Source of the DNA: a virus
Taxonomy: Duplodnaviria; Heunggongvirae; Uroviricota; Caudoviricetes
Length of the DNA stretch: 6,692 bases
IMG/VR virus record: IMGVR_UViG_2537562194_000022
Coordinates: 1-6,692 of that record
Strand: one strand, 5' to 3'
How positions within the stretch are numbered: the stretch's first letter is position 1; each line of letters starts with the position of its first letter. Under the pieces are notes generated by a model. It saw nothing but the letters and a program-made list of their open reading frames with translations, was not told where the DNA came from and did no database searches. This document shows positions 1 through 6,692 of this stretch, in pieces. The translations under genes and the position numbers were made by a program.

Positions 1-189
1 TTTAAAACTGGTCGTCGTGCGGCGTTACGTGAGATCGAGGATGTGAAACACGATACGCGTGAAGCGGAAGATGTGCTGGATGTGGCGGTGGCCATTGCGG
101 AGGCAGACGGCGAAATTGAGCCGGAAGAGCGCAAGGTGCTGGAAGAGATTGCCGGTGTTCTGGGTCTTCGTCTGGAGAATCACCAGTGA
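1..189 (+). CDS. TerB-like domain protein, C-terminal fragment (5' end lies outside the window)
   Basis: Open frame from position 1 to TGA at 187-189, translating to FKTGRRAALREIEDVKHDTREAEDVLDVAVAIAEADGEIEPEERKVLEEIAGVLGLRLENHQ. The acidic AIAEADGEIEPEE...L segment resembles the TerB (tellurite-resistance-like) fold. Assignment is from motif memory only. Confidence 0.45.
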   Translation, partial: FKTGRRAALREIEDVKHDTREAEDVLDVAVAIAEADGEIEPEERKVLEEIAGVLGLRLENHQ

Positions 190-317
190 CGGTAAAACTG
201 CGCCTGGCTGTGGCTGCACTCCTGCTGTTTCTGGTGGTGATGGTGGATTTCACCAGCAGAATCATGTCGGTGCTGGCGGATGGGGTGCTGGTCTGCGGCA
301 TTGTGGTATTGCTGTAG
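186..317 (+). CDS. Small hydrophobic (probable membrane) peptide, 43 aa, possibly translationally coupled to the upstream gene
   Basis: GTG at 186-188 overlaps the upstream stop (caGTGAcg). Translation is MTVKLRLAVAALLLFLVVMVDFTSRIMSVLADGVLVCGIVVLL, ending at TAG 315-317, with two hydrophobic stretches. Below the length cut-off of the supplied ORF track. No homology evidence. Confidence 0.3.
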   Translation: MTVKLRLAVAALLLFLVVMVDFTSRIMSVLADGVLVCGIVVLL

Positions 318-349
318 CCGGTGATAAAAAGAAACAGCCTGCATAATGC

Positions 350-378
350 TTGATTTTTTTATTTGCTGTTTATTAAAA
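350..378 (+). promoter_or_regulatory. Putative sigma70-type promoter (TTGATT -35; AT-rich TATTAA/TTAAAA -10 region)
   Basis: TTGATT at 350-355 followed 15-17 bp later by tattaaaaat (371-380). The -10 is imperfect and lacks the conserved final T, so this is weak. Confidence 0.2.
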
Positions 379-520
379 ATACTACTGCATGGTGAATCCC
401 CCTGTGCGGAGGGGCAATCAGCAACCAGGTATATGTGATAATCGCGGATTCAGGTGCTGATACTGAATTCACCGGGAGGCACCCGGCACCATGCAAGAAA
501 AAGAATGTGCATGCAAACAT

Positions 521-544
521 GCCCCTCTCCGGAGGGGCTTTTTT
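521..544 (+). terminator. Rho-independent terminator
   Basis: 7-bp GC-rich stem gcccctc (521-527) / gaggggc (532-538), 4-nt loop tccg, followed directly by tttttt (539-544). Confidence 0.6.
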
Positions 545-636
545 ATGGGTAAAAAATGCCCGAATGGGTTCGGGCAATAGCATGAGATACTGATATTGTT
601 GTGTTGTTATCGTGTGGATTTTAACCAGGGTTTATC

Positions 637-663
637 AGGCTGCGCAACTGCGTGGCCTTTTTT
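637..663 (+). terminator. Second rho-independent terminator
   Basis: 9-bp stem aggctgcgc (637-645) / gcgtggcct (650-658) with two G-U wobbles, loop aact, then a T-run (658-663). Confidence 0.45.
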
Positions 664-670
664 CATTTCT

Positions 671-717
671 TGGGCTGTAGTCCCCGTGTGTCATTCAGGC
701 TTCCGGACTACAGCCCA
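671..717. promoter_or_regulatory. 13-bp perfect inverted repeat (operator-like or RNA stem-loop) about 45 bp upstream of the esterase start codon
   Basis: tgggctgtagtcc (671-683) is the exact reverse complement of ggactacagccca (705-717), separated by 21 nt. No T-run follows on either strand, so it is not a classical terminator. Confidence 0.4.
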
Positions 718-759
718 CTCCATATCTGATTTAATACACTATCCCGGCCGGGAGGAATA

Positions 760-2253
760 ATGACATTTAAACATTATGATGTTGTCAGGGCGGCGTCGCC
801 GTCAGACCTTGCGGAAAAGCTGACACACAAACTGAAAGAGGGCTGGCAGCCGTTTGGTAGTCCGGTGGCCATAACCCCGTACACACTGATGCAGGCGATG
901 ACAACAGAAGGAGAGCCACAGGTCAGCCCTGCAACTGAGCCGGATTGGTACTACGTCATCGTACTGGCCGGGCAGTCCAATGCCATGGCTTACGGTGAAG
1001 GGCTTCCGCTGCCGGATTCATACGATGCTCCGGATCCGCGCATTAAACAGCTGGCGCGCCGCAGTACAGTGACGCCGGGCGGGGCTGCCTGCAGATATAA
1101 CGATATTATTCCGGCCGACCACTGCCTGCATGATGTGCAGGATATGAGTACGCTGAATCATCCGAAGGCAGACCTGAGCAAAGGGCAGTACGGCTGTGTC
1201 GGCCAGGGCTTACATATTGCCAAAAAACTGCTTCCGTATATCCCGAATAACGCGGGGATCCTGCTGGTACCATGCTGTCGTGGTGGTTCGGCATTCACCC
1301 AGGGCGCGGAGGGGACATTCAGTGCGGACACGGGGGCCAGCCAGGATTCGGCGCGCTGGGGTGTGGGTAAACCGTTATATCAGGACCTGATTGCGCGCAC
1401 TAAAGCTGCATTACAGAAGAACCCGAAAAATGTGTTGCTGGCGGTGTGCTGGATGCAGGGAGAGTTTGACATGAGCGCCGCCACCCACGCACAGCAACCT
1501 GCGCTGTTTACAGCCATGCTGGCACAGTTTCGTGCTGACCTCTCCGTGTTTAACGCGCAGTGCCATGGTGGCAGTGCTGCAGATGTGCCGTGGATTTGTG
1601 GTGACACGACGTATTACTGGAAAAATACATACGCTACCCAGTACGACACCGTGTACGGCGGGTATAAAAACAGGGAGAGTGAGGGCGTTTATTTTGTGCC
1701 CTTCATGACAGACGGTAACGGCGTCAATACCGCCACTAACGCGCCGGCAGAAGATCCGGATATTCCGGCATCAGGATATTACGGTGCGGCATCGAGAACG
1801 AATGGAAACCAGGTATCATCAAACCGCCCGACACATTTCAGTTCATGGGCGCGCAGGAGCATTATTCCGGATCGTCTGGCAACCGCTATTCTGAACGCAG
1901 CCGGGCGCACCTCAGCCTTCATCAGTGGTAAGGCACCGGAAATCAAACCCTCGCCCGGCGGCAACACGCCATCGGGTCCGTCTGCAGATACGTCCGTTCG
2001 CACAATCTCCCTGCTGCCGGCAGCCGGAGAGGCTGCTGCGCAGGGCTGGAGCATTAAGGATGGCGGAATTCAGTTGTCAGATGGTGTATTTAAGATCACC
2101 AAGCAGAGCAATAAAACCTGGTCCCTGACGCATCCGGTGGATGACGCAATTACCCTGCTGACACAGGGCGGCAGACTGACCTGTGTCAGGCGCACTGACC
2201 AACAATCAGTTCGGGCTGGGGATTTATCTGTATACGGATGCTCCCGTTCCTGA
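760..2253 (+). CDS. nanS-p: Prophage sialate O-acetylesterase of the NanS-p type (DUF1737 N-terminal domain plus SGNH/SASA hydrolase domain); 3' end probably frame-shifted and truncated
   Basis: ATG at 760 preceded by gggagga RBS. The N-terminus MTFKHYDVVRAASPSDLAEKLTHKLKEGWQPFGSPVAI is DUF1737-like. VIVLAGQSNAMAYGEG carries the GQSN block of SGNH/sialate O-acetylesterase enzymes. 497-codon frame. Confidence 0.8.
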   Translation: MTFKHYDVVRAASPSDLAEKLTHKLKEGWQPFGSPVAITPYTLMQAMTTEGEPQVSPATEPDWYYVIVLAGQSNAMAYGEGLPLPDSYDAPDPRIKQLARRSTVTPGGAACRYNDIIPADHCLHDVQDMSTLNHPKADLSKGQYGCVGQGLHIAKKLLPYIPNNAGILLVPCCRGGSAFTQGAEGTFSADTGASQDSARWGVGKPLYQDLIARTKAALQKNPKNVLLAVCWMQGEFDMSAATHAQQPALFTAMLAQFRADLSVFNAQCHGGSAADVPWICGDTTYYWKNTYATQYDTVYGGYKNRESEGVYFVPFMTDGNGVNTATNAPAEDPDIPASGYYGAASRTNGNQVSSNRPTHFSSWARRSIIPDRLATAILNAAGRTSAFISGKAPEIKPSPGGNTPSGPSADTSVRTISLLPAAGEAAAQGWSIKDGGIQLSDGVFKITKQSNKTWSLTHPVDDAITLLTQGGRLTCVRRTDQQSVRAGDLSVYGCSRS

Positions 2254-2371
2254 TGGTGTGGCGATGACGGGTACCGGTAATCCGTTCCTGATGTCGTACT
2301 TCACTCAGACCACTGACGGCAGAGTGAATCTGATGCATCACAGGAAAGCCGGAAACACGAACTGGGGGTTC
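2183..2371 (+). pseudogene. Frame-shifted 3' continuation of the esterase gene, ending at the IS junction
   Basis: The +1 frame from about 2180 encodes protein-like sequence (ALTNNQFGLGIYLYTDAPVPDGVAMTGTGNPFLMSYFTQTTDGRVNLMHHRKAGNTNWGF), whereas the 760-frame ends in low-quality sequence (RLTCVRRTDQQSVRAGDLSVYGCSRS). The +1 frame runs into IS sequence at 2372. Confidence 0.4.
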
Positions 2372-2380
2372 ATCGATAGG
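2372..2380. repeat. IS91-like terminal repeat, ori-proximal end (downstream of tnpA)
   Basis: ATCGATAGG, preceded by GTTC at 2368-2371. Confidence 0.5.
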
Positions 2381-2558
2381 AATTTAAATCCCAAAAAGAT
2401 TAAAAAAACACCCAAAAACGGATGTTTATTCAACACTGCCTGCGTGCCATGAGTGCACCGCCGTCAATTAAATGGATCTTATCGATTGATACTGCATATC
2501 ACTGATGGTTTTTTACCCCATTCCCCTGAAAATGGACGCAACCTCTCCGATGCGGCTC

Positions 2559-3791
2559 TCAGCCGCACACCCGCTGTTGCGCCAGTGGCTCATGCATCAG
2601 GACCAGCTCTGTCAGACGGTAGCCCCGCTTCAGCCCCGTAAAACGCATCTGACCTCCGCACAGGATGCACTTCAGCGGGTCAACCTTCAGTAACCGCTGA
2701 TACATCCCTCTCCACCTGATTTGCATCGCCGTCTTTCTCACCGTCTCCGTTATGACGTACACAACATCTTCCAGTAACCGGCGCTTCACCGGACTCAGGA
2801 AACCGTAGTACCTCACCATACGGAACCCCTTATCCGCCACATGCCAGGAGAACCTTTCCATAAACTCATCACCACTCATCACCAGGTATTCTTCCCGTTT
2901 TGTCCGGTGACTGTTGTAACGCAGACCAATTTCATCCTGACCAGCATAGTGCTCCAGACGGCTCATCGGCACCGGCGGTTTTTTCAGGTAAGAGCCGAAG
3001 TACACCGCCACATGTGTGGCGTTATCCATCACCCGGGATACGTTGACATTCCAGCCCCGCCGGTAATGACTGTCCAGGAAGCGATTCCAGTCCCGTTTAC
3101 TGCTTCCTTCTGCTGCCAGCGCATCCGGTATCACCAGGTCCGGATATTTCCGTGACAGTAACCGCGTTATCCGGTAACGCCACATACTCATCACCTTACG
3201 GGCGTAAAAATGAAGGTTTTTCCAGGTGTGGTCTGATGTCACGCCGCCGGTCGTTGTCGACAGGTGAATGTGCGGATGCCACTGCTGGTCACGTCCCCAT
3301 GTGTGGATGACCGTGAATATCCCCGGCACCACATCTGCCTGGCGGCAGATTTCCTGTATCACATCCGCAGCAATGCGGCTCATCTCTGCCAGTAACCACC
3401 GGTTGTGGAACACCAGGGACCAGTACTGGCAGGGAAGTGTGAACACAATATGCTGCCACGGACAGTCGGGAACCAGACTCAGCAGATACTGTATCCACTG
3501 TGCGCCAGCCTTCACTCCGCAGTGCGGGCAGGAGCGACTTTTACACCGGAAGCAGATCTTTTTTATGTGGCTGCAGTCCGGAGATGAACAGCACCACTGT
3601 GTGTACCCCATCAGCGTGGTCCCGCAGGCCATGATTTTTGTCACAGACTCAATGACTACCGGACGCACTGAACCTTCCGGTTGTTTCTCCAGCCAGTTAA
3701 GCCAGCGGTTTCCCTGCTGAAAAATGTCGGCAAAACGGGGAAGCATCAGAAGGGCGGGGGGACTCCGTCCGGCCAGTGAACCGTGCCACAC
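2559..3791 (-). CDS. tnpA: IS91-family transposase TnpA (HUH Y2 rolling-circle transposase)
   Basis: 410-codon frame with a GTG start at 3791. N-terminal Cys-rich zinc-binding region (CCSSPDC...CFRCKSRSCPHC), HUH motif HPHIH, and a YxxxY pair (VYFGSY). The true start may differ. Confidence 0.9.
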   Translation of the reverse strand: MWHGSLAGRSPPALLMLPRFADIFQQGNRWLNWLEKQPEGSVRPVVIESVTKIMACGTTLMGYTQWCCSSPDCSHIKKICFRCKSRSCPHCGVKAGAQWIQYLLSLVPDCPWQHIVFTLPCQYWSLVFHNRWLLAEMSRIAADVIQEICRQADVVPGIFTVIHTWGRDQQWHPHIHLSTTTGGVTSDHTWKNLHFYARKVMSMWRYRITRLLSRKYPDLVIPDALAAEGSSKRDWNRFLDSHYRRGWNVNVSRVMDNATHVAVYFGSYLKKPPVPMSRLEHYAGQDEIGLRYNSHRTKREEYLVMSGDEFMERFSWHVADKGFRMVRYYGFLSPVKRRLLEDVVYVITETVRKTAMQIRWRGMYQRLLKVDPLKCILCGGQMRFTGLKRGYRLTELVLMHEPLAQQRVCG

Positions 3792-4111
3792 TCCGGGCAG
3801 TACATGCCGCCGGCGCTGATACCGGCAAGAATGGTCGCAAACTCCCGCTCCGTGCAGCGGGCTATTTCAGGATACCCTTCGTCATCAACACGTACAAACC
3901 AGAAGACCAGCTTTTTGTTTCCGGCATCCACAAAGAAGGGAATATTCAGGTCTGCGCAGCACTCAACGGCATCGTCAAAATTATCAAAGCGCAGAGCTTC
4001 TGCGTCTTCTTCGTCAAAGAAGTCATCGTCGTGAAGCTTCACGACATAGCGGGGAAGTTTGCTTCTTTGAGGGGCAGGTTTTCGTTTACGGGGTTTAGCT
4101 GAACGGGACAT
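3746..4111 (-). CDS. IS91 ORF121-like small protein (function unknown)
   Basis: 121-codon ORF with ATG at 4111, directly upstream of tnpA and overlapping its start by 46 bp. This length and position match the ORF121 of IS91. Confidence 0.75.
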   Translation of the reverse strand: MSRSAKPRKRKPAPQRSKLPRYVVKLHDDDFFDEEDAEALRFDNFDDAVECCADLNIPFFVDAGNKKLVFWFVRVDDEGYPEIARCTEREFATILAGISAGGMYCPECGTVHWPDGVPPPF

Positions 4112-4129
4112 ATAACTACCTGAAAGACA

Positions 4130-5572
4130 ATGATATTGTCTGTTTTTATAACGGTAATTTCAGGCCATGACAAGCCGCAGCCGCCAGGCTGCCTACTCGA
4201 TGATAAACAGCAGAGCGCCCTGACAAAAACAGAACGTGAGCTGGCCCTGTCCCGACTGAAGGGGGAGGAAAAAGAGCGTGTCCGGCTGGGGTATGCGGCG
4301 GATGACCTTGGTTTTGTGGGGGATTCGTATCAGGAGGCGAGACAGCGTTATATCAGTAATGCTCTGGAAGCCTGGCGTAATAACGAGGCGAACAAACCTA
4401 AATCCCGGGGTGGAAAATCAGAGACGGAAAAAGCGGAAGACAGTTTTTCCCGGCTACTGAAGCAGCAGAAAGAGCAACTGGCACTGGCCGGTCAGAACAC
4501 GGAGCTGGCGAAGCTGAAGTACCAGACAGCGCTGGGTGAACTGAAAACCCTGTCGGAGATACAGAAGCAGGAACTGCTGCGTAACGCGGCCCTGATTGAC
4601 CAGCAAAAAATCCGGGAACAGTTGCGATCCCGGGAAGAGACCCTGAAGAATGATAATGTGGCTGCGCGTGCATCAAATGAAGCCGAACTGCTGGGGTACG
4701 GGCAGGGAGAACGAGCCAGGGAACGCATGCGGGAGTTGCAGCAGATCCGCGACAGCTTCCGCCAGAAGGATGCGGACCTTCAGTCTCAGTATCAGACCGG
4801 GGATATCAGTGAGGATTTTTACAGACAGGCACGGGCACAGAACGCGCAGTATCTGAGCGAACGCCTTAAGGACCAGGCAGCCTTTTATGCCGAATCGGAT
4901 GCGCAGCGTGCGGACTGGCAGAAAGGCTTGCAGGAGGGGCTCAGTAACTGGGTGGACAATGCATCCGATTACGCTTCACAGGCAGCACAGCTTGCGACGG
5001 AGGGTATCTCAGGGATGGTGAATAACATCACGGAGATGCTGAACGGAAACAAAGTGGAATGGCGCAACTGGGCCTCATCCGTACTGCAGGAAATCTCAAA
5101 AGTTCTTATGAATGCCGCGATTGTCAACGGAATTAAGACGGCGGCAAACGGTATGTCCGGTGCGGGAGGATTTCTCGGCAGCATTGGTGACTGGCTGGGC
5201 GGGGCGGTGGCCAATGCAAAAGGCGGCGTGTATACCTCGGCAAACCTGAGTGCGTACAGCAACAGTATTGTGGATACGCCCACGTACTTTGCCTTTGCAA
5301 AAGGGGCGGGGCTGATGGGGGAGGCCGGACCTGAAGCCATTATGCCTCTGACGCGGGCGGCGGATGGCTCGCTGGGTGTGCGAGCGGTGGGCAGTATGAA
5401 CGGTAGTGCGGGTCTGGTGTATTCCCCGGTCTACCATATCGCCATTCAGAATGACGGGACTAATGGCCAGATAGGGCCGGAAGCTGCGGGCAGCCTTGTG
5501 CAGCTGATTGACCAGCGGGTGCAGGCGGTGATGCTGTCCATGCGACGTGACGGAGGAATGCTGAGTGGCTGA
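4130..5572 (+). CDS. H: Tail tape-measure protein (lambda gpH-like), C-terminal portion only; 5' end removed at the IS junction, first 24 codons are IS-derived
   Basis: Coiled-coil Q/E/R/K-rich middle, Gly-rich segment, and a C-terminus (VYHIAIQNDGTNGQIGPEAAGSLVQLIDQRVQAVMLSMRRDGGMLSG) that matches the lambda gpH C-terminus (NDGTNGQIGP...MRDGG). Phage-derived sequence begins at 4202, in frame. About 457 aa remain against about 850 for a full gpH. Confidence 0.85.
   Translation: MILSVFITVISGHDKPQPPGCLLDDKQQSALTKTERELALSRLKGEEKERVRLGYAADDLGFVGDSYQEARQRYISNALEAWRNNEANKPKSRGGKSETEKAEDSFSRLLKQQKEQLALAGQNTELAKLKYQTALGELKTLSEIQKQELLRNAALIDQQKIREQLRSREETLKNDNVAARASNEAELLGYGQGERARERMRELQQIRDSFRQKDADLQSQYQTGDISEDFYRQARAQNAQYLSERLKDQAAFYAESDAQRADWQKGLQEGLSNWVDNASDYASQAAQLATEGISGMVNNITEMLNGNKVEWRNWASSVLQEISKVLMNAAIVNGIKTAANGMSGAGGFLGSIGDWLGGAVANAKGGVYTSANLSAYSNSIVDTPTYFAFAKGAGLMGEAGPEAIMPLTRAADGSLGVRAVGSMNGSAGLVYSPVYHIAIQNDGTNGQIGPEAAGSLVQLIDQRVQAVMLSMRRDGGMLSG
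4192..4201. repeat. IS91-like terminal repeat, ter-proximal end (upstream of ORF121)
   Basis: cctactcgat; its reverse complement ATCGAGTAGG matches the left end with one indel. Confidence 0.5.
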
Positions 5573-5906
5573 GATAAAAACGCTGCATCTGGTCCCGCGT
5601 GAAGGGATGCAGGTGAGTGAGAAACCGTCGGTGGTGAGGGTTCGGTTTGGTGACGGTTATGAACAGCGCCGACCGACGGGACTTAATGCCAGACTGAAGA
5701 CGTTTCAGGCGGTGTTCCGGGTGACGGATGAACCAACCCGGCGCTGGCTGGATGAATTTTTATCCTGGCATGGTGGTTACCGTGCCTTTTTGTGGCGACC
5801 GCCGAAACATAACCGGACGGTGAGGGTGGTGTGCCGGGAGTGGAGCGTCACAGATAACGCCAGGTACAGTGATTTCAGTTGTACGATTGAGCAGGTGGTG
5901 AACTGA
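5565..5906 (+). CDS. M: Minor tail protein M (lambda gpM-like)
   Basis: GTG start overlapping the H stop (GTGGCTGA), with ggagga RBS 7 nt upstream. VRVRFGDGYEQRRPTGLNARLKTF...IEQVVN aligns with lambda gpM (VRKVRFGDGY...FEQVVN). Confidence 0.9.
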   Translation: MAEIKTLHLVPREGMQVSEKPSVVRVRFGDGYEQRRPTGLNARLKTFQAVFRVTDEPTRRWLDEFLSWHGGYRAFLWRPPKHNRTVRVVCREWSVTDNARYSDFSCTIEQVVN

Positions 5907-6604
5907 TGCAGGATATTCGCGAAGAAAGTCTGAACGAGTCGGTTAAGTCAGAGCAGTCACCGCGGGTGGTACTCTGGGAAATCGACCTGACGGTACAGGG
6001 TGGTGAGCGGTATTTTTTCTGTAATGAGCTGAATGAAAAAGGGGAGCCGGTCACCTGGCAGGGGCGTAAGTATGAGGCATACCCGATTGACGGCAGCGGC
6101 TTTGAGATGAACGGCCGGGGCAGCAGTGCCCGCCCGTCGCTGACGGTGTCCAATCTGTTTGGCCTTGTCACCGGGATGGCGGAGGACCTGCAGAGTCTGG
6201 TGGGGGCCACGGTGGTCCGCCGCCGGGTGTATGCCCGTTTTCTGGATGCGGTGAATTTCGTTGCGGGCAATCCGGAAGCGGACCCGGAGCAGGAGCTGAG
6301 CGACCGCTGGGTGGTGGAGCAGATGTCGCAGCTGACAGCCATGACGGCCTCGTTTGTGCTGGCTACACCGACCGAGACGGATGGGGCGCTGTTTCCCGGT
6401 CGCATCATGCTGGCGAACACCTGTATGTGGGATTACCGGGGAGATGAATGCGGGTATAACGGTCCTGCGGTGGCGGATGAGTTCGACAACCCCACCACGG
6501 ATATCCGGAAGGACAGATGCAGCAAGTGCATGCGCGGGTGTGAGATGCGCGGCATGGTGGCTAATTTTGGCGGTTTCCTTTCCATTAATAAACTTTCGCA
6601 GTAA
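5906..6604 (+). CDS. L: Minor tail protein L (lambda gpL-like)
   Basis: ATG overlaps the M stop (TGATG). 232 aa, as for lambda gpL. MQDIREESLNE...VVLWEIDLT...GGERYFFCNE...GEPVTWQGR...FGGFLSINKLSQ is collinear with lambda gpL along its length. Confidence 0.92.
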   Translation: MQDIREESLNESVKSEQSPRVVLWEIDLTVQGGERYFFCNELNEKGEPVTWQGRKYEAYPIDGSGFEMNGRGSSARPSLTVSNLFGLVTGMAEDLQSLVGATVVRRRVYARFLDAVNFVAGNPEADPEQELSDRWVVEQMSQLTAMTASFVLATPTETDGALFPGRIMLANTCMWDYRGDECGYNGPAVADEFDNPTTDIRKDRCSKCMRGCEMRGMVANFGGFLSINKLSQ

Positions 6605-6614
6605 ATCCTGTTTT

Positions 6615-6692
6615 ATGACACAGACTGAATCAGCGATTCTGGTGCATGCCCGGCGGTGTGCGCCTGCGGAGTCGTGCGGCTTCGTGATAGGC
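6615..6692 (+). CDS. K: Tail assembly protein K (lambda gpK-like), N-terminal 26 codons; continues beyond the window
   Basis: ATG at 6615, 10 bp after the L stop. MTQTESAILVHARRCAPAESCGFVIG matches the lambda gpK N-terminus. Confidence 0.85.
   Translation, partial: MTQTESAILVHARRCAPAESCGFVIG

Follow-up and report, generated by a model that had tools for sequence, protein, structure and literature searches.

What are the two overlapping genes at the left end of a lambdoid prophage fragment, and do they form a cassette that had not been described? The question is raised by the first 317 bases of IMG/VR virus record IMGVR_UViG_2537562194_000022, of which positions 1 to 6,692 were analysed as a single strand (this whole stretch of 6,692 nucleotides (nt) is called the window hereafter). 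A sequence-only reading of the window had pointed to the C-terminus of a TerB-like gene, followed by a small open reading frame (ORF) whose start overlaps the TerB stop, and had suggested that an undescribed accessory cassette might sit there. Judged by homology, window 1-317 comprises the last part of a TerB gene of the tciA type and, after it, the partner gene tciB (DUF3927) in a truncated allelic form, and this TerB/TciB pair is an already catalogued two-gene phage cassette rather than a new one. The explanation that is put forward here as a whole, and that is considered probable, is that of a coupled tciA/tciB cassette that occupies the slot of the stx genes of Shiga toxin (Stx) phages, that has decayed in the copy seen here, and whose intact versions would work through a TerB protein and a membrane partner.

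The tciA end and its small partner gene

The pair and its immediate 3' flank comprise the following features, all on the plus strand.

1-189, plus strand: 3' end of a TerB-family (tciA-type) gene, last 62 codons and TGA stop (Pfam TerB match, RefSeq naming)
174-177, plus strand: GGAG, Shine-Dalgarno sequence for the small ORF, lying within the TerB coding sequence (read from the sequence)
186-317, plus strand: tciB (DUF3927) gene, shortened allele of 43 amino acids (ORF list, Pfam, PHROG, RefSeq)
315-317, plus strand: TAG nonsense codon, TGG (Trp44) in relatives (DNA and protein alignments with the copy of phage PPyecE_EH1910)
318-353, plus strand: remnant of the ancestral tciB 3' end, PVIKRNSLHNA, still in frame, with the original TGA at 351-353 (sequence)

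Frame 1 is uninterrupted from base 1 until the TGA at 187-189, and its product matches Pfam TerB (PF05099) with an E-value of 9e-8 and 32.9 bits over profile positions 67-109 of 118, the cut-offs applied being 24.4 bits for this family and 25 bits for DUF3927 (PF13064). Only the 3' part of the gene, which has 143 codons in relatives, is present in the window; it includes ADGEIEPEE, the second conserved acidic motif, and the first acidic 'DG...E' motif lies upstream of the window. The TerB-like character noticed at the C-terminus extends to the whole protein, as full-length relatives match Pfam TerB with an E-value of 2e-16 (about 60 bits), and a profile built from 7 TciA proteins matches the Klebsiella KP-TerB structure 2JXU with an E-value of 4e-13 (query positions 15-137, chain residues 21-144). 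The full-length 143-residue protein is 41% identical to TciA of phage P1 and 52% identical to TerB of phage P7, and the invariant TerB residues are D39-G40-E46 and D117-G118-E124.

The small ORF is found just as it had been described. Its GTG start codon (186-188) overlaps the TerB stop codon TGA (187-189) in the sequence GTGA (186-189), and the GGAG at 174-177 sits 8 nt 5' of the GTG. The 43-residue product, MTVKLRLAVAALLLFLVVMVDFTSRIMSVLADGVLVCGIVVLL, has hydrophobic stretches at about 7-20 and 26-43, with DFTSR between them, and a grand average of hydropathy (GRAVY) of 2.0. It matches DUF3927 with an E-value of 6.8e-12 and 45.6 bits, covering only profile positions 2-41 of 53, and the PHROG 1470 family ('TciB-like') with an E-value of 1.6e-21 at positions 1-43 of 54; in RefSeq it is WP_001344632.1, 'DUF3927 family protein'. 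NCBIfam holds no model for the small protein, and no relative of TciB was found among solved structures.

The size of this ORF is by itself within chance: short ORFs abound in this GC-rich stretch, where 26 mechanically called ORFs of at least 25 amino acids overlap bases 1-1500. The small ORF could thus be read as a chance frame, the DNA itself acting just as a spacer or as the 5' region of the downstream STnc100 small RNA (sRNA) gene. Against this stand the significant Pfam and PHROG matches, purifying selection that is specific to the frame, and the retention of the protein in phages such as P1, Pollock and ZY21, which show no nucleotide similarity and have no STnc100 gene downstream. Among close relatives, the ratio of nonsynonymous to synonymous polymorphism (pN/pS) of the small ORF is 0.39 in frame versus 1.1 and 1.6 in the two alternative frames, and that of TerB is 0.05; by this measure, both genes are under purifying selection. 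The small ORF is therefore judged to be real because the homology and the in-frame selection exceed what chance would give, and not because of its length, and the chance-frame explanation can be regarded as effectively refuted by these comparisons. Two mechanical ORFs that overlap the pair, 59-346 on the plus strand and 2-301 on the minus strand, had no supporting evidence and were dropped.

The pair bears names in several catalogues. RefSeq gives, in many E. coli genomes, the gene order 'tellurite resistance TerB family protein', 'DUF3927 family protein', 'SASA family carbohydrate esterase', and the two proteins correspond to PHROG 632 ('tellurite resistance') and PHROG 1470 ('TciB-like inhibition of cell division or resistance to colicin'). 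The genes are called tciA and tciB in the record of phage JLK-2012, and the first is called 'TciA/TerB-like' in that of phage PPyecE_EH1910. The tci names originate from phage P1, where they were assigned 'by homology' only; P1 TciB matches DUF3927 with an E-value of 7e-31. Literature searches found no tested function for the pair. The cassette is also common: with at least 80% coverage of a 596-nt query required, 803 of 5,426 complete E. coli genomes (about 15%) carry it, at a median of 3 places per genome and a maximum of 8. With RefSeq annotation, tciA/tciB entries in phage records, Pfam and PHROG families and this frequency in E. coli, the suggestion of an undescribed cassette falls.

The idea of a two-gene cassette with a small hydrophobic partner fares better. 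A set of 27 loci with TerB proteins 33-100% identical was compared, comprising P1, P7, the Erwinia jumbo phage ChrisDB, phage Fostie, JLK-2012, PPyecE, and prophages of Pectobacterium, Serratia, Citrobacter, Enterobacter, Erwinia, Pantoea, Buttiauxella, Rosenbergiella and other hosts. A DUF3927-like ORF of 49-59 residues with two hydrophobic segments lies directly 3' of TerB in 24 of them; in 22 of these 24, there is an overlap of 1 or 4 nt between its start and the TerB stop, and in the other two the start is within 8 nt of the stop. The pair is found as well in the N4-like coliphage Pollock, Pantoea phage LIET2 and Pseudomonas phage ZY21, and altogether it is conserved at more than 30 diverse loci of prophages and phages. 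In the ZY21 record, the deposited 39-residue 'hypothetical protein' corresponds to the 3' portion of a 62-residue DUF3927 ORF (986-1174 of the locus examined) that begins 3 nt after the TerB stop, the deposited start being mis-annotated too far downstream.

The DUF3927 family is small and has no genuine multi-domain members; in a set of 1.84 billion proteins, it amounts to 117 representatives when clustered at 50% identity. Fusions of TerB to TciB were considered as Rosetta-stone evidence and rejected, since the long matches (P0128, P0169 and P0173) are frameshifted or chimeric gene calls. Two clean in-frame fusions, P0265 (197 residues) and P0360 (196 residues), arise from frameshifts at the overlap and are each found on a single contig; they could be sequencing errors, and are weak evidence at best. 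A functional link with tRNA genes was likewise rejected. Such genes are found 1-2 kb or less from the cassette at loci of P1-like, lambdoid, jumbo and Pseudomonas phages, among them P1, P7, JLK-2012, ChrisDB, an E. coli O121 prophage and ZY21, and are absent from most other loci, so that this proximity probably reflects a shared cargo hotspot and not a functional link.

Decay of the copy in the window

The 43-residue length reported for the small ORF is correct for the window, but it is not the native length: TciB has 54-55 residues in relatives, and the change of TGG to TAG shortens a 55-residue protein to 43. The sequence after the TAG still encodes, at 318-353, a peptide identical to the tail of the commonest 55-residue allele, ...WPVIKRNSLHNA. 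What is stripped by the truncation is W44-P45 and the basic tail, i.e., the conserved W-P-x-x-K ending; in an alignment of 16 TciB sequences, conservation reaches at least 90% at P45, and most sequences have W44. In a wider set of 43 TciB sequences, only D21, S28 and D32 reach 90% conservation. From these alignments, the TciB of the window is a nonsense allele, and the copy is most likely dead.

The fate of the neighbouring gene in relatives bears on this. The 43-residue allele occurs in only 4 of about 84 close loci, whose TerB genes are all damaged, and among the contigs fetched for the exact 43-residue protein, 10 of 10 carry a stop in place of E46 of TerB, most of them with a 5' deletion, an internal deletion or an insertion sequence (IS) in addition; a broken TerB gene thus accompanies the short allele in 14 of 14 contexts, which share ancestry and are not independent samples, the association being no statistical proof. 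In loci with full-length TciB, TerB is intact in 74 of 78. The surroundings are degraded too, and the decay reading is supported because the frameshifted esterase gene, the IS91-family element and the loss of the lysis genes show a prophage that is eroding.

Besides the common ancestry of those contexts, two points tell against the decay of both genes. Codon 46 lies outside the window, so that the window genome's own TerB would be a pseudogene by the pattern of its relatives. The exact 43-residue protein is also found on at least 992 contigs; this abundance is compatible with clonal spread, and could conceivably reflect a retained function. In the latter case, the 43-residue product would still function alone, as a minimal membrane peptide for which the tail is dispensable and TerB no longer needed. 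It has indeed kept its start codon, its Shine-Dalgarno sequence, both hydrophobic segments and D21, S28 and D32, and its contigs span several enterohaemorrhagic E. coli (EHEC) serotypes. This is nonetheless very unlikely, given that the peptide lacks P45, the mostly conserved W44 and the basic tail, that E. coli harbours many more variants with frameshifts or truncations, as is typical of decay, that the coupled upstream gene is dead, and that the prophage remnant is eroding at several points.

The joint loss of the two genes can also be read in terms of a toxin/antidote or abortive-infection pair, in which TciB would be a membrane-active toxin or pore that TerB restrains or triggers; once TerB was lost, selection would have favoured the nonsense mutation, as it disarms TciB. 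The 43-residue allele would accordingly always stand beside a broken TerB, as is seen in the 14 contexts, and TciB is small and very hydrophobic, with D21, S28 and D32 sharing a face of the predicted helix. The tight translational coupling of the genes and their location in a cargo hotspot point in the same direction. However, 4 loci (L084, L086, L087 and L089) pair a damaged TerB with a full-length 55-residue TciB, and TciB without TerB is therefore tolerated. Neutral erosion of a defective prophage explains the co-decay equally well, as the esterase is broken too, and no defence model of PADLOC-DB was matched: the sole match was that of PDC-S48 to TerB (E-value 0.0028, 14.8 bits), with none for TciB or for TciC, the product of a third gene found in P1. 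In addition, the cassette is carried by strictly virulent phages (N4-like and jumbo), where abortive infection makes little sense. On balance, a toxin pair is an unlikely account of the cassette, and decay of a coupled tciA/tciB cassette is retained for the window.

A proposed working of intact cassettes

In intact cassettes, the stop/start overlap, together with TciB's own Shine-Dalgarno sequence, would ensure that the TerB protein and TciB are co-translated in a fixed stoichiometry. TciA would be a soluble, acidic and probably metal-binding protein of the TerB fold, and TciB a small inner-membrane partner; by analogy with TerB and TerC in ter operons, the two may act jointly at the cytoplasmic face of the membrane. 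Expression would occur with the lytic transcripts, i.e., by Q-antiterminated late transcription in lambdoid phages and from the C1-repressed ban operon in P1. Candidate outputs are the control of ion or envelope stress during phage growth, or the exclusion of other phages or of colicins.

Outside the window, relatives share a conserved leader of about 140 nt that lies between a terminator hairpin and the TerB start and includes the inverted repeat CCACAGAG...CTCTGTGG; it was located at 5600-5757 of locus L001 and at 3594-3757 of locus L003. A crude consensus scan found no sigma-70 promoter in the leader of these relatives, which could be a regulatory element.

That a membrane partner recurs beside TciA is suggested by loci in which TciB is swapped for an unrelated single-transmembrane protein or for TerC. 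In Pseudomonas phage AF and in a P. juntendi prophage, an unrelated single-transmembrane protein of 67-73 residues (PHROG 27356) replaces TciB with the same GTGA overlap; the corresponding ORFs are at 1932-2153 of the AF locus (L008), where the ORF is not annotated, and at 2441-2644 of the P. juntendi locus (L095). In Vibrio phage vB_VpaP-MS02, a gene of the TerC family (Pfam E-value 8e-39) lies directly 5' of a TciA-like TerB gene and there is no TciB; at this locus (L123), TerC at 3-797 and TerB at 901-1326 form a phage-borne TerC-TerB pair. A complex between TerB and TerC has been reported experimentally, according to the papers that cite this work (Turkovicova et al. 2016, cited in PMC11003894 and PMC12054061).

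For TciB itself, hydropathy and the positive-inside rule suggest a hairpin with both termini in the cytoplasm (N-in/C-in). The AlphaFold 2 (AF2) monomer of the 55-residue protein differs from this, as it is predicted as a single continuous helix over residues 3-53, with a predicted local distance difference test score (pLDDT) of 91, and not as a hairpin; D21, S28 and D32 fall on one face of this modelled helix.

This prediction is one of several points that weigh against the proposed working of the pair. The comparison of TciB with TerC (Pfam PF03741), by hhalign of a 16-sequence profile against E. coli Alx, gave a probability of 0.1% and an E-value of 0.59. Some phages, such as Vibrio K481 and Pseudomonas PMBT3, carry TerB without the small partner gene. 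The interaction of TciA with TciB, their localisation and their phenotype are proposals made by analogy, and lytic or late expression is deduced solely from where the genes lie and how they are oriented, the promoter scan being a crude consensus search. In P1, tciA, tciB and tciC came out as non-essential for plaque formation in a CRISPR interference (CRISPRi) screen (PMC10695390), and the role of phage-borne terB is called unknown in published papers. With these points taken into account, the coupled cassette with a TerB protein and a membrane partner is still held to be the best explanation.

The names given to the pair could also be taken literally, in which case it would provide the lysogen with resistance to tellurite, colicins or both, or would inhibit cell division. 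The homology to TerB of the terZABCDEF operons, which confer resistance to tellurite, phages and colicins, is in keeping with this, and the 'tci' names in the records of P1 and other phages do state such a function by homology. These names rest on homology only, however, and no other ter gene is found nearby in any lambdoid or P1 context examined. Moreover, in the literature cited in PMC12054061, the minimal tellurite resistance unit is TerC-TerD plus TerZ or TerA, and not TerB alone, and the function of phage-borne terB is itself described as unknown in the literature. Taken together, this makes the literal annotation more doubtful still than a toxin pair.

A more specific version of the TerB-plus-membrane-partner mechanism can be imagined. 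TciB, far from being a passive anchor, would assemble into a helix bundle whose conserved acidic and polar stripe of D21, S28 and D32 binds or conducts cations, and TerB would sense a metal or an ion and gate the bundle, which would thereby reset the membrane potential or the ion balance in phages as different as P1-like, lambdoid, N4-like and jumbo phages, for the timing of lysis or for the exclusion of rival phages or colicins. Such a gated bundle is speculative and, in this precise form, about as unlikely as the toxin pair. If true, it would give the linkage between the nonsense allele and a dead TerB a meaning, namely selection to silence an ungated membrane peptide.

Genomic slot and closest known systems

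By gene order, the lambdoid cassette is placed in the slot between the Q/tRNA genes and the nanS-p esterase gene, a position taken by stxAB in Stx phages. E. coli O121 RM8352 has, in succession, genes for the Q antiterminator, a methyltransferase, tRNA-Ile/Arg/Arg, TerB, DUF3927, the esterase and a holin. Stx-converting phages share sequence with the window only from base 385 on, and in the Stx1a phage LC567819, about 105 nt separate the end of stx1A and stx1B from the stretch after them that is homologous to window 385-760. The shared downstream sequence and the position of stx1AB therefore indicate that the cassette is an alternative cargo of the stx slot, which bears out the accessory-cargo hotspot proposed by the sequence-only reading. 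The features found downstream of the pair are the following.

361-550, plus strand: prophage sRNA gene of the STnc100 family (PasD-related), not part of the cassette (Rfam RF02076, 148.1 bits versus a gathering score of 47)
551-612, minus strand: AgvB anti-GcvB sRNA gene (Rfam RF02702, 96.5 bits versus a gathering score of 56)
637-658, plus strand: terminator-like hairpin with a T run, 5' of the esterase gene (terminator scan)
2559-3791, minus strand: IS91-family transposase, then an ORF of 121 amino acids

Two terminators, at 521-544 and 637-663, had been taken to end the cassette. The terminator scan does find a hairpin with a T run at each place on the plus strand (521-538 and 637-658), but that at 521-538 is the end of the STnc100 gene and does not end the cassette. 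AgvB, which converges with STnc100, has its own terminator, a hairpin and T run at 576-557 on the minus strand; the same 551-612 interval, on the minus strand, shows a weaker, sub-threshold match to the AsxR family, which is related to AgvB. The 637-658 hairpin, taken as a neighbour and not as the cassette's own terminator, is also present in PPyecE_EH1910, and no Rfam family matches it above the gathering score. TerB has been described as a conserved neighbour of prophage sRNA (Pas) loci (2026 preprint, bioRxiv 10.64898/2026.05.13.724894).

Further downstream, the nanS-p-type esterase gene (760-2372, with DUF1737 and SASA domains) is a pseudogene, owing to an 11-bp deletion near 2184 that causes a frameshift and a stop at 2253, and homology to the intact 616-residue esterase gene stops near 2372. 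In the interval that begins with the transposase (2559-6604), the transposase and the 121-residue ORF are followed by a C-terminal fragment of the tape-measure gene and by two tail genes, M and L. The prophage has lost its lysis, terminase and head genes by deletion. The placement upstream of lysis genes holds as far as the hotspot is concerned, whereas the window itself has no lysis genes left, the frameshifted esterase being followed by the IS91-family transposase and tail genes. The closest genomes are those of the O111:H- strains 95NR1 and 95JB1 (99.0% identity).

By itself, the copy in the window matters little, being an annotated cassette that has been pseudogenised in an eroding prophage. 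TerB/TciB nevertheless ranks among the commonest cargo cassettes of enterobacterial phages, and is found also in P1, N4-like and jumbo phages; it is an alternative occupant of the Shiga toxin slot and was named by homology twenty years ago. What this widespread module does for phages is a question of some value, for which the coupled translation, the swappable membrane partner, the acidic stripe of TciB and the joint decay of both genes offer starting points for functional work.

Among known systems, stxAB and other morons resemble the cassette in their slot, their orientation and the downstream module of STnc100, AgvB and the nanS-p esterase; the cassette proteins are unrelated to them, and nothing suggests a secreted toxin. 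The TerB-TerC part of terZABCDEF operons is similar to TciA/TciB in that a TerB-fold protein is encoded beside an integral membrane protein. It differs in that TciB has only about 55 residues and no detectable similarity to TerC, and in that no TerC, TerD, TerZ, TerA or TerE gene is found near the lambdoid and P1 cassettes examined, an adjacent TerC being seen only in MS02.

DjlA is a membrane-tethered DnaJ-like co-chaperone with an N-terminal TerB-like domain and a hydrophobic anchor in the inner membrane, the anchor and the J domain being parts of one polypeptide. The full TerB protein matches the DjlA model weakly, below threshold (E-value 9.5e-7, 28.7 bits versus a cut-off of 162). Unlike DjlA, the cassette has no J domain, and its putative anchor is encoded by a gene of its own, which is co-translated.

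The tciA-tciB genes of P1 differ from the pair of the window in several respects. P1 and P7 have a third coupled gene, tciC, which encodes a 35-residue single-transmembrane peptide (PHROG 23152) and is absent from the lambdoid version; in the window, the ORF list holds no TciC-like ORF after 317, where an sRNA gene is found instead. The tciC gene of P1 is at 3090-3197 of its locus (L005). The P1 operon (ban) is under the control of the C1 repressor, while the lambdoid pair lies downstream of Q in the late region, and the TciB of the window is truncated. In all other respects compared, i.e., a homologous TciA of 141-144 residues, a homologous TciB, the gene order, the stop/start overlap and the nearby tRNA genes, the P1 pair (as well as terB/upf69.4 of P7) and that of the window are alike.

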